This document shows, one piece after another, positions 19,836 to 60,744 of a stretch of DNA of 64,000 nucleotides. Made by a program: the position numbers and the translations under genes. Location: NCBI RefSeq assembly GCF_056746865.1, contig NZ_CM163382.1. One strand, written 5' to 3'. The notes beneath the pieces were generated by a model, which ran no database searches, had not been told where the DNA came from, and worked only from the letters and a program-made list of their open reading frames with translations. Position 1 is the stretch's first letter, and each line of letters starts with the position of its first letter.

Positions 19836-19910
19836 GACAAACAAATTTAGTGCAAATTACCGCTAAAATCGCGTTTTCCTGCCGACGCACACGTTTGCGT
19901 ATCATATCAG

Positions 19911-19945
19911 AAAAAAGGGCCGGATGACTCCAGCCCTGTATTTTT
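19911..19945 (-). terminator. rho-independent (bidirectional-looking) terminator downstream of bamC
   Basis: A6-AGGGCCGG-atgact-CCAGCCCT-gtaTTTTT; on the minus strand the hairpin is followed by a T6 run. Confidence 0.55.
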
Positions 19946-55108: not shown

Positions 55109-55234
55109 GTTCATTCATAGTGCAGGGTCAAATCATTCCCACTCAATTGTTTACGACAATCATAACCAATTGAGTGATAACATTTTTCCAAAACTTAATT
55201 TTTCTAGTACCGTTTTATATACCGTCACCGGAAA

Positions 55235-57372: not shown

Positions 57373-59775
57373 TCATTCAGACTCCAGCAACTCTATCCTG
57401 GCGAGAAGCGCTTCATATTTATCAAGTAATCGAGAGTAGTTCCTTCGTTGCATTGCAGCTTCCATTACCAACATTTCTTCATAACGAATGCCGTAACGGG
57501 AACCAGCTTCTATAGCAGGAGTGATTACCTCACCGGTTTCATCATCTATGACGGCAGGAGTGTCACCCCATTCATCATAACAGATGAAACCAAAGCGATG
57601 AGCATCAAGACCATGCCTTTCGAATGCCTCCACGTACCGTTGAGCAATGGCGCCGAAGTGCCAGCGGGCGCCATCAGCGCCTTTTTCTTTAATCCTATCC
57701 AGATACTTATACTGGACTAGCTGAACCTCTTCTGCGGCATCGAGAATGGCATCAGTCATTAGTAATGGGTCTGATTTGCAAATGGCATCTGACGTGATAG
57801 TGAACGCCGTTTGAGTGAATCCACCAGACCACGGAAACGAACTTGCCCCGCAAGGATAGGTATTTGCCGTGGCAGGACGTATTTGCTTCACAGCAAATAC
57901 GTGCGACGTCATTTCTGCTGTACCAGAACCCGTAACGCCGGGATCTCCACCAGAGACACGTAAAATCCCTGTAGGGACAGATGAGTCCGTCGATGAATAA
58001 AAGCGAATCTGCTGTGCTTCTGCAACACCAGGGTTACATAGCTTAATAGCTTTAGTTGTGAACGCATTAGTATCCGTATCAAATATCCAGTATCTGTTGT
58101 TTGAACCACCATCTATAATAACGTTCGCAAGAGATACACCAACTCGCTGTATATTAGAAATATTGTTAGCATTAGTACCAGCAGTTAACTGAATACCCCT
58201 TGTGCAATTATTTACACGCGAGTTACTAATAGTATTATTAGCAGCAAATCTAGTGCCAGCGGTATTTCCTGTCAGGAGAGTATGCGTAGTGTCCTTACTG
58301 AAGCCTGTCAATAACACCTCATTATTAGTGAACGTACCGTACTGAGCACATGATTTAAAACCGATATAAGGTGTGGTTAAATCCTCAGGAATACCATTCC
58401 ATACCATACAAAAGTTATCTGTAATTACACTATGGTTTCCTCCATTGTTAGACAAATCACCCAACTCTACAGCACTTATGGAAGTATTGAAGTGGTTATT
58501 TGTAACCTGGAACAGGTTACCAACATTGTTTTCAGAAACAACTCCGCGGCGACCAGCAATGATATGGTTACCGAAAACCACAACACCTTCGGTATCGTCA
58601 TGCGCGTACATGAAGGTGTCGAAGTTCTGATAAGAACCATTGACAATATTGATATTCTTTGTTGAGTACAGGTCGAATATTTTACCCATTCGATATGCTG
58701 GTACAGATGTTCCTCCACCAGTTACGTTAACGCCGTCAAATACACACTGACCAGCTCTGCTTAGCTTAAAGACAGTATCAAAAGAGGATTGAGTACCAGC
58801 ATCATTTGACACATCCAGGTCACGAACGATAAGTTGTCGGGCGTATTCGATTCCCCCTGTCCCTAAAAACGTAAGCGCAGTACCCTGAAGTTGCCCGGTA
58901 GCTTTTATCGTGAAATTACGTAAACCAACAGGTTTTCTTACTACAGTCGTACCCGAGTTATCAATGATAAGACCATATCCAGCAGCAAATTTTATTCCGC
59001 ATGTAGCCATGCTTACGCCAAAAACATCACTATAAAAATTAGTTACTGAGATGTCGCTTGAGCAGTTGTATATACGACGAAGCTTAATATCTAGACCAGT
59101 TTCCTTTGCTGCAGTAAAGGCATTGATCAGTGCCAAGGTATCATCAGCATCACCTCCAACAGCGCCAAAATCCTCAGGAGTGAGTGATTCCCTCATTTTA
59201 TCCTGGAACGTTCGGTATACTGCCCCATAACCATACTGAATAAACCAACCAAAACCACCAACAACCCCGGCGATTGCAGCATCGACATAATTACGCATTG
59301 AGCGATTATTTACAGCGTCCTGCTCAAGTGATGGATCTGCAAGGTTAGAAATTCTGTTTTGCTTTGCATCGTAATATTTTGCAAGCAAAGATGGTTTCAT
59401 CAATGCACGTCTGAACCACCCAAAACATTGCTGGATCAGCATCGTCAGGTAGTCAAAGGCATCTTCATGCACTTCGGGAAAAAACTTTCCCTGATTGCGA
59501 AGGTCTGTCTCCTGTACTACATCAAGCACACGATCTATCGTAATTCGCCATCCAGTAGCAAGCGGAGACGGAAGAACCACAGAACCGCCACTATAAGTGC
59601 CCGCCCCAGTTACCGTATAACCGGTATCCAGAACCAATTCTGTTACGTTCCCGTTCAGGTCAGACACCTGAACAACCAGGTCTGATTTTCTGAAAATTCG
59701 AAAAGTATACGGAAACGATGTCGTAACGCCGTTACCTGTGTATTCGTTGTGGTCAACTTCGGTTGAGACCGTCAT
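57373..59775 (-). CDS. prophage tail fiber/tailspike (N-terminal virion-attachment domain, central beta-helix-like domain, C-terminal intramolecular chaperone domain)
   Basis: 800-aa ORF preceded by GGAG; N-terminus has the tail-fiber motif ...NRISNLADPSLEQDAVN... (compare T7 gp17 RIVNLANAVDDRDAV); middle is Gly/Asn/Thr-rich repeat typical of beta-helix tailspikes; C-terminal ~130 aa resemble S74-type chaperone domains. Confidence 0.8.
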   Translation of the reverse strand: MTVSTEVDHNEYTGNGVTTSFPYTFRIFRKSDLVVQVSDLNGNVTELVLDTGYTVTGAGTYSGGSVVLPSPLATGWRITIDRVLDVVQETDLRNQGKFFPEVHEDAFDYLTMLIQQCFGWFRRALMKPSLLAKYYDAKQNRISNLADPSLEQDAVNNRSMRNYVDAAIAGVVGGFGWFIQYGYGAVYRTFQDKMRESLTPEDFGAVGGDADDTLALINAFTAAKETGLDIKLRRIYNCSSDISVTNFYSDVFGVSMATCGIKFAAGYGLIIDNSGTTVVRKPVGLRNFTIKATGQLQGTALTFLGTGGIEYARQLIVRDLDVSNDAGTQSSFDTVFKLSRAGQCVFDGVNVTGGGTSVPAYRMGKIFDLYSTKNINIVNGSYQNFDTFMYAHDDTEGVVVFGNHIIAGRRGVVSENNVGNLFQVTNNHFNTSISAVELGDLSNNGGNHSVITDNFCMVWNGIPEDLTTPYIGFKSCAQYGTFTNNEVLLTGFSKDTTHTLLTGNTAGTRFAANNTISNSRVNNCTRGIQLTAGTNANNISNIQRVGVSLANVIIDGGSNNRYWIFDTDTNAFTTKAIKLCNPGVAEAQQIRFYSSTDSSVPTGILRVSGGDPGVTGSGTAEMTSHVFAVKQIRPATANTYPCGASSFPWSGGFTQTAFTITSDAICKSDPLLMTDAILDAAEEVQLVQYKYLDRIKEKGADGARWHFGAIAQRYVEAFERHGLDAHRFGFICYDEWGDTPAVIDDETGEVITPAIEAGSRYGIRYEEMLVMEAAMQRRNYSRLLDKYEALLARIELLESE

Positions 59776-59860
59776 GTTAAATCTCCAGATAGTCGCAGCA
59801 CCCGTTGCGCCGCATATCTGGTTATTCTATTACCTGAAAAACCACATATGGATAGAAAGG

Positions 59861-59876
59861 CTGTAAATACGAATAG
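59861..59876. promoter_or_regulatory. weaker second LexA-like box (CTGT-N8-ATAG)
   Basis: CTGTaaatacgaATAG, one mismatch in the distal ACAG half-site, about 70 bp upstream of the strong box. Confidence 0.3.
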
Positions 59877-59931
59877 ATATTACCTTTCAGGTAATTTGCA
59901 AAACGTGCTGGATAGCAAACAAATTATTTGC

Positions 59932-59951
59932 TACTGTATAAATATACAGTT
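59932..59951 (+). promoter_or_regulatory. LexA (SOS) box immediately upstream of the small plus-strand ORF
   Basis: tACTGTATAAATATACAGtt matches the LexA consensus TACTGTATATATATACAGTA at 18/20 with CTGT-N8-ACAG intact; ends 6 bp before ATG 59957. Confidence 0.7.
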
Positions 59952-59956
59952 ATTGC

Positions 59957-60229
59957 ATGGAGAAGATTAAGATGCAGCAGTATCACTATCCACTGGAAGA
60001 CGGATTTACCGAAAGGATTCACACGCCGGGAGGCGTCAGGTCACTGGTGGAGGGATCGCACTTGATGAAATTACTCCGGGATCTCGATAAGGATGGATTT
60101 AATGTCGATGGCCCACTTGCCGAACTGACTGCACTGATTAACTACGTCACCAGCTCACAGATGTCTATGCGGGATCTGCAAACACATCTCGACTATTGTG
60201 CCGAACAATTACGAAAACAAACCCGGTAA
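59957..60229 (+). CDS. small SOS-box-associated prophage protein of unknown function (90 aa, or 85 aa from ATG 59972 which has the better GGAGA Shine-Dalgarno)
   Basis: ORF in track; soluble, charged, no TM segment; LexA box overlaps its promoter region; convergent with the 98-aa membrane protein gene. Confidence 0.55.
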   Translation: MEKIKMQQYHYPLEDGFTERIHTPGGVRSLVEGSHLMKLLRDLDKDGFNVDGPLAELTALINYVTSSQMSMRDLQTHLDYCAEQLRKQTR

Positions 60230-60235
60230 ATTTAA

Positions 60236-60273
60236 AGGCCGCAAGAGCGGCCTGTGACATGTCACGCTCTTTT
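60236..60273. terminator. bidirectional terminator between the convergent small genes
   Basis: GGCCGC-aaga-GCGGCC hairpin then GTGACATGTCAC palindrome and CTCTTTTTC; T-rich on both strands (tttaaattt on the minus side). Confidence 0.55.
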
Positions 60274-60558
60274 TCTGAATGATAGCCATTCGAAAAATGA
60301 TGACATTCCACCGCAGACAATAGCAAAGATGATCCCACCAAAGAAGAGAAGGCCAGCCTGCCACCACTCCCACCGCCATACATCCACAGCGCCAACCATA
60401 CCAACAATCGCTCCAACAAATGGAATATAGCTCACGATGAAAGCAATGGGGGCTGCAATTATCCAGTGCAATCCCCACCATGATTCAAGCCCAGCCATAA
60501 TTGCTGCCAACTGAAAAAGACCAACGACGATATAAACAATGAATCCTATAGCTTGCAT
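60262..60558 (-). CDS. small 3-TM inner-membrane protein of unknown function (moron; candidate superinfection-exclusion or conversion protein)
   Basis: 98-aa ORF with AGGTGA Shine-Dalgarno; three hydrophobic helices, Trp-rich loop (VDVWRWEWWQAG), basic C-terminus FRKRA. Confidence 0.6.
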   Translation of the reverse strand: MQAIGFIVYIVVGLFQLAAIMAGLESWWGLHWIIAAPIAFIVSYIPFVGAIVGMVGAVDVWRWEWWQAGLLFFGGIIFAIVCGGMSSFFEWLSFRKRA

Positions 60559-60570
60559 GTAGTCACCTAT

Positions 60571-60744
60571 TTACCCAGTAAAAATCAGAGGCCTCCCCTC
60601 AATAAGGCTTGCAACAAGAACTATTCCCTGCACAACAAAGATGAACCAGCAAATAGCTTGAGTCTGAGGGTTAAGAAAATATTTGTAGCGGTCAATAAAT
60701 AACAACCCACCAGAAATTATCACACTCAAAATAATTAAAAACAC
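60571..60744 (-). CDS. possible 57-aa two-TM membrane peptide (GTG start), translationally coupled to the upstream virion protein gene
   Basis: Not in ORF track (under 60 aa). GTG 60744 is preceded by AAGGAAG overlapping the 824-aa gene stop; product (M)FLIILSVIISGGLLFIDRYKYFLNPQTQAICWFIFVVQGIVLVASLIEGRPLIFTG; same frame as the upstream gene. Confidence 0.35.
   Translation of the reverse strand: MFLIILSVIISGGLLFIDRYKYFLNPQTQAICWFIFVVQGIVLVASLIEGRPLIFTG

Follow-up and report, generated by a model that had tools for sequence, protein, structure and literature searches.

The closest described counterparts of the locus analyzed here are the gp19-gp20 region of phage epsilon15 and the ant-tsp region of phage SPC32H. 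For SPC32H, Kim & Ryu reportedly described in 2013 that Ant is an antirepressor under LexA repression and that it inactivates Rep, a repressor that is not cleavable. The DNA-binding form of Rep is a tetramer, which tetrameric Ant breaks into dimers (PMC9638917; PMC9986798). A non-cleavable repressor that is inactivated by an antirepressor with a LexA-boxed promoter is also found in coliphage 186, with Tum, and in Gifsy, with GfoA/GfhA (PMC3121763), although these proteins are unrelated to the Ant discussed below. The epsilon15 record (AY150271.2) holds eight repressor protein_bind features, and annotates no promoters and no half-site. Here, we describe a 181-bp interval in a stretch of 64,000 nucleotides of DNA (contig NZ_CM163382.1 of assembly GCF_056746865.1; the whole stretch is called the window), located between a tailspike gene and a small gene on the opposite strand. 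A sequence-only reading had proposed that the interval is a divergent control region, in which a palindrome, a direct repeat and three GATAG motifs serve as operators that could couple the tailspike promoter to an SOS-regulated promoter. Comparison with related phages turns this motif cluster into a readable map of prophage induction, with a LexA box on the predicted antirepressor promoter, a putative Rep operator and a predicted tailspike promoter.

Results

Sequence comparison shows that an epsilon15-like (Uetakevirus) prophage makes up the window from 55131 onward. Among the temperate podoviruses of Uetakevirus, identity to the region is 99% for ZX5 and 91% for phiV10, followed by ~75% for epsilon15, SPC32H, SPN1S and Tyrion and ~67-70% for Klebsiella phages. 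We located the attachment core ATTGAGTGGGAATGATT, as published (PMC9782041), at 55131-55147; hence, the prophage runs from this core to beyond the window's end. Its orientation is reversed, with the lysis genes first, then the tailspike gene, ant and the internal virion proteins, and its rep gene and immunity region lie beyond the window. A 4-kb stretch is matched in 542 of 5426 complete E. coli genomes (~10%), and the best match in this collection is 98.8% identical, with an insertion. Judged by these relatives, the interval represents the control region of tailspike and ant, and is the E. coli counterpart of gp19-gp20 in epsilon15 and of ant-tsp in SPC32H (Table 1). The comparison covered ~75 related sequences; the sets referred to below are 12 aligned phages (alignment A1), 6 divergent relatives and 65 distinct variants.

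Table 1 Genes and predicted control elements of the tailspike-ant region, with positions in the window
Feature	Position	Strand	Remarks
Tailspike/tail fiber gene, 800 aa	57373-59775	-	C-terminal endosialidase-chaperone (Peptidase_S74), Pfam PF13884, E=2e-9
Tailspike Shine-Dalgarno GGAG	59783-59786	-	CTCC columns nearly invariant in A1
Predicted tailspike 5'UTR stem-loop	59785-59821	-	dG -20.9 kcal/mol, z = -4.9, 0/200 shuffles as stable
Predicted P_tsp -10, TAGAAT	59824-59829	-	Predicted start near 59817
Putative lone Rep half-site GGTAAT, the upstream TATTACCT copy	59829-59834	-	Directly upstream of P_tsp -10, one base in common
Predicted P_tsp -35, TCCATA (59852->59847)	59840-59852 (with conserved element)	-	Promoter scan
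AT-rich linker between P_tsp and operator	59853-59878		26 bp; fixed length, variable sequence
Putative Rep operator ATTACC-N5-GGTAAT	59879-59895		Centre ~-70 from predicted P_tsp start, ~-57 from predicted P_ant start
Predicted P_ant -35, TGGATA	59909-59914	+	Holds third GATAG; conserved in 12/12 phages; CTGG..A invariant
Predicted P_ant extended -10, TGcTACTGT	59929-59937	+	Predicted start near 59944
LexA (SOS) box TACTGTATAAATATACAGTT	59932-59951		18/20 to consensus; spans P_ant -10 to ~+8
ant, putative small antirepressor, 85 aa	59972-60229	+	Shine-Dalgarno GGAG 59959-59962
GC-rich terminator-like hairpin after ant	60236-60253		Terminator scan

All motifs of the sequence-only reading are present. 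The palindrome ATTACCT-ttc-AGGTAAT (ATTACCtttcaGGTAAT) occupies the site listed in Table 1 as the putative operator, the direct repeat TATTACCT is found at 59828-59835 and 59878-59885 with a spacing of 50 bp, and GATAG occurs at 59788-59792, 59851-59855 and 59911-59915; the site GAATAGATA at 59872 is a fourth site and is not GATAG. There is in addition a perfect 11-nt inverted repeat, formed by ATTACCTGAAA (59829-59839) and TTTCAGGTAAT (59885-59895), and the upstream copy is thus longer than had been stated. The expectation by chance was estimated from shuffles of the 181-bp region (36% GC), in which a perfect 7+7 palindrome occurred in 11%, a repeated 8-mer in 27% and any 5-mer at least three times in 75%. 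Three copies of GATAG specifically were seen in 0.04% of the shuffles, for a word that was picked after the sequence had been seen. Most of the motif set, taken alone, could therefore have arisen by chance, and for this reason the matter was settled by comparison with relatives. Conservation across these relatives, the check that had been suggested, is strong rather than absent. Together with recurrence across the genome, it marks the palindrome and the upstream half-copy as real, and the same test removes the GATAG family.

A simple consensus scan for promoters and terminators called no promoter in the interval, and was replaced by a PWM scan combined with positional conservation across the 12 aligned phages. 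Only two promoter-like sites, P_tsp and P_ant, are conserved in position in 12/12 phages, and the invariant columns are the diagnostic bases of sigma-70 promoters, namely T1, A2 and T6 of each -10 and the TG of an extended -10. We predict P_tsp and P_ant to be sigma-70 promoters arranged back to back, ~127 bp apart, and the idea of a divergent control region is supported.

P_tsp has the layout TCCATA-17-TAGAAT in the window and TTCATA-17-TAGAAT in most relatives. T1, A2, A4 and T6 of its -10 hexamer are invariant in alignments A1 and A4, and ATTCTA is present in 60 of the 65 variants. The -35 lies inside a conserved element, CCATATGTGGTT (59851->59840), in which ATATG.A and AAACC are invariant in A1 and the divergent relatives; a CATAT(G/A)TGGTT element of this kind is also found upstream of the gp3 and holin operons in related genomes. 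The linker that separates P_tsp from the operator has 37 sequence types among the 65 variants without a single change in length, and shows no IHF consensus. An inverted repeat, CATATGTGGTT / AACCAGATATG, flanks the -10 in the E. coli lineage; since it is not kept in epsilon15 or at gp3, it was not treated as a general feature.

Downstream of P_tsp, the tailspike gene starts with an ATG at 59775-59773 on the minus strand, and the N-terminus of its product is homologous to the tailspikes of epsilon15, SPC32H and phiV10. The predicted stem-loop in the 5'UTR pairs with the first two G of the Shine-Dalgarno sequence. GC-rich hairpins of -13 to -22 kcal/mol are predicted at the same place in 6 relatives when each sequence is folded separately, and RNAalifold gave no covariation support for the tailspike 5'UTR, for which the alignment was poor.

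On the other side of the interval, the gene previously noted for its SOS box is a putative LexA-controlled antirepressor, Ant. Its product is 86.7% identical to Ant of SPC32H and matches chain E of PDB 5D50, 'Anti-repressor protein', at E=1.4e-46; no Pfam family covers Ant. The GGAG and the ATG at 59972 are invariant in relatives. An in-frame ATG at 59957 was considered as the start and rejected, as ZX5 and phiV10 have it in another frame and the Klebsiella phages lack it. P_ant has the layout TGGATA-17-TGnTACTGT, overlapped by the LexA box, with an invariant TG at -15/-14 (59929-59930) and with T, A and T of the hexamer TACTGT (59932-59937) invariant as well. A recA-like promoter, TTGCTA-16-TTATTG, was also considered for ant; its -10 is without the conserved A2 and T6 and its start would fall in the Shine-Dalgarno sequence, and it was rejected because the conserved TG is better explained as the extended -10 of TACTGT.

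The core of the LexA box, CTGTATAAATATACAG (59934-59949), is a perfect CTGT-N8-ACAG, and its arms are invariant in relatives. SPC32H and SPC32N differ in this region by only two nucleotides, both in the interval, and one of them, ACAG versus AAAG at the position of 59947 in the window, falls in the right arm of the LexA box. With the LexA box placed over P_ant, Ant would, by homology, be made only during the SOS response. Where the terminator-like hairpin follows ant in the window, epsilon15 has an annotated stem-loop terminator at the matching place.

The palindrome can be assigned securely, on comparative grounds, as the putative operator of the phage repressor Rep and not of LexA, in agreement with the earlier proposal that it is an operator. 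It is the single perfect match to ATTACC-N5-GGTAAT in the 64-kb window, and it aligns column for column with the homologous site of epsilon15 (19895-19911), which is annotated as protein_bind 'repressor, lysogeny'. The half-sites do not vary among 18 divergent phages and prophages, in contrast to the freely variable central N5; among the 65 variants the left half is intact in 64, and the right half is GGTAAT in 43 and GGTGAT in 19. The N-terminal helix-turn-helix (HTH) domain of Rep is conserved across these phages though overall identity is 43-64%, which fits a shared operator. The Ant homologues retrieved are all at least ~60% identical and come from Enterobacteriaceae prophages of the same phage group, with the same Rep DNA-binding domain and operator.

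Copies of the putative Rep operator sit at most promoters of epsilon15-like prophages. In ZX5, 15 matches to ATTACC-N5-GGTAAT are found at up to 2 mismatches, compared with 1.2 expected, and some of them flank rep. Six complete Uetakevirus genomes carry 8-12 sites per genome at up to 1 mismatch, in syntenic promoter regions. Downstream of rep there are three sites in epsilon15 and SPC32H and two in ZX5 and Tyrion, and one to three per genome lie between rep and cro. There are one or two sites at terS, a single site precedes gp3, another lies between ant and tsp, and the post-replication gene has two upstream. One further site lies upstream of the holin cluster (absent in ZX5), and the site upstream of int is weaker, with 2 mismatches. 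In the window the operator overlaps neither core promoter, and with its centre upstream of both predicted starts simple occlusion is not evident. An IHF site is annotated beside the epsilon15 operator; the consensus WATCAANNNNTTR, allowing up to 1 mismatch, is not found in the window, and the 12 phages show no match to it that is conserved in position.

The upstream copy of the direct repeat, which the sequence-only reading had listed as a candidate site, holds up as a conserved and related Rep half-site. On the tailspike strand it is fused to the -10 as GGTAATAGAAT, and TATTACC is invariant in the 12 phages and the 6 divergent relatives, including positions -13 to -18. Positions -13 to -18 are not constrained by sigma-70. 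The distance from the half-site to the matching half of the operator is exactly 50 bp in 73 of 75 distinct sequences. The gp3 promoter has a comparable layout in 6/6 genomes, with a full operator, then CATATGTGGTT, then a GGTAAT fused to the -10, at a spacing of 62 bp. Full operators are likewise paired at 62 bp upstream of the post-replication gene, in 6/6 genomes, and near rep in the O_L region, where the pair consists of exact operators in 4/6. In the O_L region of ZX5, the proximal operator spans -10 to +1 of a TTGACA promoter and the distal operator is at ~-62.

Discussion

We consider it probable that the interval is a Uetakevirus control region in which a LexA-boxed P_ant and P_tsp are combined with a Rep operator and half-site, and we propose that Rep bridges the latter two. 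The parts of this explanation differ in what they rest on. The identities of the putative operator, of Ant and of the LexA box, as well as the conserved positions of both predicted promoters and of the half-site, are shown by sequence comparison. Repression of ant by LexA, inactivation of Rep by Ant and the tetrameric state of Rep come from the literature on SPC32H, and we infer that Rep bound at -70 would repress P_tsp and would do so through the half-site. In a lysogen, a Rep tetramer, with two DNA-binding units, would occupy the strong distal operator and contact the weak half-site next to the promoter, and by bridging the two it would keep P_tsp shut. Upon DNA damage LexA would be cleaved and Ant made; Ant would then remove Rep from the DNA, and P_tsp would fire, together with the other promoters under Rep control. 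Bridging is proposed because gp3 has the same layout, because full operator pairs are spaced by 62 bp and because the Rep tetramer has two DNA-binding units. Three observations argue against it. The half-site amounts to just half an operator, and its would-be partner, GTGGTT, is unlike ATTACC; the 12 bp by which the two spacings (50 and 62 bp) differ do not make an exact helical repeat; and in epsilon15 the operator upstream of the holin promoter is accompanied by a poor half-site, GTGTAT.

The operator could alternatively serve mainly to control P_ant. Rep at -49 to -65 would then block the contact between an UP element and the alpha-CTD, so that Rep would damp its own antirepressor and LexA would be a second lock. 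The edge of the operator is 13 bp from the -35 of P_ant and 26 bp from P_tsp, an A/T-rich GGTAATTTGCAAAA lies where an UP element would sit, and the E. coli, Salmonella and Tyrion lineages all keep the flank TTGCA. However, the gp3 and holin operons have an upstream Rep operator and CATAT(G/A)TGGTT without any ant, with a half-site as well at gp3, and hence P_tsp alone accounts for the operator. The distance that is fixed, without indels, is also the one to P_tsp, whereas the stretch from the operator to P_ant contains indels in Klebsiella phages. Published work on the control of ant is said to name LexA alone, which we also count against a main role at P_ant, and on balance we regard such a role as unlikely. 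Control of P_ant by Rep would be compatible with an effect on P_tsp too.

Another reading is that P_tsp is silent in the lysogen for want of a phage activator that recognizes CATAT(G/A)TGGTT, with the operator as an accessory, be it a Rep reservoir, a looping anchor or a roadblock. In its favour, an 11-bp, partly palindromic element recurs at the promoters of tsp, gp3 and holin as well as in the vicinity of other operators, in a position that fits no single -35/-10 register at all sites. The -35 of the window, TCCATA, is weak (3/6 match), and PerC-like and AlpA-like regulators are encoded in the early-left operon of these phages. Even so, P_tsp of most relatives is a good sigma-70 promoter by itself (TTCATA-17-TAGAAT, 9.4 bits), and the element is in places found inside promoter spacers, on the non-transcribed strand. 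We know of no activator of P_tsp, which also counts against this reading, and we think it improbable that an activator accounts for the silence of P_tsp.

The sequence-only reading had instead taken the palindrome, the direct repeat and GATAG as cis operators of one regulator that physically couples the tailspike and SOS promoters. The motifs exist, and three copies of GATAG are rare in shuffles, but some 5-mer occurs three times in most shuffles and two of the three GATAG copies are not conserved. The copy at 59911, inside the P_ant -35 hexamer, is the sole conserved one. At 59851, GATAG overlaps with the P_tsp -35, on the other strand, and is replaced by AATCG or AATAA in relatives; at 59788 it belongs to the 3' arm of the 5'UTR hairpin, with GATTG in its place in epsilon15. 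GATAG as a repeated operator or iteron family was thus rejected, given that the copies lie on different strands in three functional contexts that are not comparable. The palindrome, furthermore, is part of a genome-wide putative Rep regulon that is unrelated to LexA, and coupling by one regulator in cis appears very improbable. The expected outcome nevertheless stands: because the operator is that of Rep and not of LexA, and lies off both core promoters, the link between tailspike and SOS response is most likely a trans cascade from LexA through Ant to Rep, which has no need of shared cis sites.

Readings of the palindrome as an RNA hairpin or terminator, or as a chance palindrome in AT-rich DNA, are in our view already excluded and have next to no probability left: although 7+7 palindromes are not rare in shuffles, the half-sites are invariant around a variable centre without compensatory changes and recur in each genome at roughly a dozen syntenic sites, the AT-rich stem has a loop of 3 nt and lacks a T-run, the palindrome is upstream of both predicted starts, the terminator scan made no call there and an Rfam search of the palindrome as a structured RNA gave no match at E<=1.

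Returning to silencing of P_tsp by bridging Rep, a more general form can be put forward tentatively, as a possibility that we ourselves hold to be doubtful. The lysogeny repressor might act directly on the late promoters of Uetakevirus and silence them by way of a split operator, made up of a palindrome 50 bp (tsp) or 62 bp (gp3) upstream and a half-site fused to the -10, with one Rep tetramer bridging the two and with CATAT(G/A)TGGTT marking the late regulon. Overexpression of ZX5 Rep lowers the endolysin and holin transcripts by more than 99.9% (PMC9782041), which is consistent with direct control of late functions by Rep. If the generalization is true, late genes would be controlled independently of any Q- or Ogr-like late activator, and the unusual 'trans' tetramer architecture in the crystal structure of Rep would have a role. 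The possible addition to knowledge is thus the strict geometry of operator and half-site at the -10 of late promoters, which suggests a remote shut-off of late genes by a tetrameric repressor. A practical consequence is the correction of annotations, given that the small Ant is usually labelled 'hypothetical' and that the longer open reading frame from 59957 has the wrong start.

The locus is most readily understood next to the systems to which it is related. The intergenic regions of vB_EcoP_ZX5 (99%) and phiV10 (91%) contain every element found here, while the body of the tail fiber differs. In studies of these two phages the small Ant is annotated as 'hypothetical protein', and a Bro-N protein that is absent from the window is taken as the anti-repressor. 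The epsilon15 gp19-gp20 region likewise has a tailspike gene divergent from the small gp19, a homologue of Ant, together with a 17-bp palindrome at the matching position, a matching LexA-type box and a terminator after gp19. It differs in that its DNA is ~75% identical, in that N5 is TTACA compared with TTTCA in the window, and in that the IHF site annotated by its operator is without a counterpart in the window. The SPC32H switch (PDB 5D4Z, 5D50) has a LexA box over the ant promoter, ant beside tsp and an identical Rep operator sequence, but its host is Salmonella, whereas the host here is E. coli. Rep of SPC32H and Rep of the E. coli lineage (ZX5 type) are 43% identical overall, with the N-terminal DNA-binding domain conserved.

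At a greater distance, the immI region of P22 and lambda-type control also have a repressor that acts on separated palindromic operators at helical-phase spacing, and ant of P22 is beside tailspike gene 9. Unlike in P22 and lambda, the putative Rep operators are spread beyond the immunity region over late, lysis, packaging and int promoter regions. The antirepressor here is also small, LexA-controlled and unrelated to Ant of P22, and there is no Mnt or Arc. To our knowledge, the two promoter positions, the half-site with its fixed 50/62-bp geometry and the shared late-promoter element are not described in the literature surveyed. These newly noted details are modest refinements and do not make a new kind of system. 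The arrangement is essentially already known, as the epsilon15 record marks the operator at the matching position and the Ant/LexA switch has been published.

Results and discussion

In each of the six genomes compared, namely ZX5 (L004), epsilon15 (L005) and their relatives L086-L089, full operators of the phage repressor Rep (the 17-bp palindrome ATTACC-N5-GGTAAT) occur as pairs whose start positions are exactly 62 bp from each other. At the gp3 promoter a lone half-site is also found 62 bp away, whereas at the tailspike promoter the distance is 50 bp. The tailspike, gp3 and holin operons are each preceded by CATAT(G/A)TGGTT, an element of 11 bp that is palindromic in part, in every Uetakevirus genome examined, and in these genomes it is also found next to other Rep operators, lying 28-40 bp downstream of the full operator. 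No single sigma-70 register fitted the element across all its sites, and it could represent either a late-promoter element or a regulator's site.

Positions of the elements discussed, in the window and in related phages
Feature	Genome	Position	Strand
CATAT(G/A)TGGTT	Window	59840-59851	-
CATAT(G/A)TGGTT	ZX5 (L004)	2467, 5897, 16155, 22812	
CATAT(G/A)TGGTT	epsilon15 (L005)	2988, 24751, 35953	
Rep operator pairs	ZX5 (L004)	13047/13109 and 16108/16170	
Rep operator pairs	epsilon15 (L005)	32554/32616 and 35906/35968	
Rep operator pairs (equivalents)	L086-L089		
Tailspike leader hairpin	Window	59785-59821	-
Tailspike gene body	Window	57373-59500	-
Upstream ATG extension of ant	Window	59957-59971	
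Two small ORFs beside ant	Window	60262-60744	-
Attachment-site core	Window	55131-55147	

A stable hairpin is predicted for the tailspike leader, at -20.9 kcal/mol (z -4.9), and its pairing takes in the two leading G residues of the Shine-Dalgarno sequence. All relatives have a GC-rich hairpin here despite differing sequences, and the structure could serve to stabilise the mRNA or to damp translation. Within the tailspike gene only the first ~90 codons are common to most relatives, and a full-length match to the body, including the Peptidase_S74 chaperone at its end, turned up in just 2 of 5426 complete E. coli genomes. Such restricted sharing and the rarity of the full-length body are consistent with swapping of receptor-binding modules at a point immediately after the conserved head-binding domain.

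On the other side of the control region, the longest ORF of the SOS-box gene ant, a LexA-controlled antirepressor gene, opens with an ATG that precedes the true start codon by 15 nt. In ZX5 and phiV10 this ATG is not in frame, and Klebsiella phages lack it; most records label the Ant homologue merely 'hypothetical protein'. Phages SPC32N and SPC32H, which reportedly differ by only two nucleotides genome-wide, show two differing positions in the 261 bp compared, one in the LexA box, on its right arm, and one in a codon close to the tailspike gene start. By alignment, one of 80 related viral contigs (L081, IMGVR_UViG_2563366870_000004) has no operator, half-site or LexA box upstream of its ant-like match; this locus may be rearranged, or the start-codon search may have landed at the wrong place.

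Two small hydrophobic ORFs of 98 and 57 aa, neither with a Pfam match, occupy the slot that separates ant from the gp17-like virion gene. Relatives carry other cargo in this slot, for example Bro-N antirepressors, YafO toxin and DUF2335 proteins, and from these differences the position appears to be a variable accessory-gene hot spot.

The prophage ends at the attachment-site core ATTGAGTGGGAATGATT, and all sequence to the left of about 55.1 kb in the window is host chromosome. The same core is reported for phiV10, epsilon15 and ZX5, which integrate at the guaA 3' end (PMC9782041).
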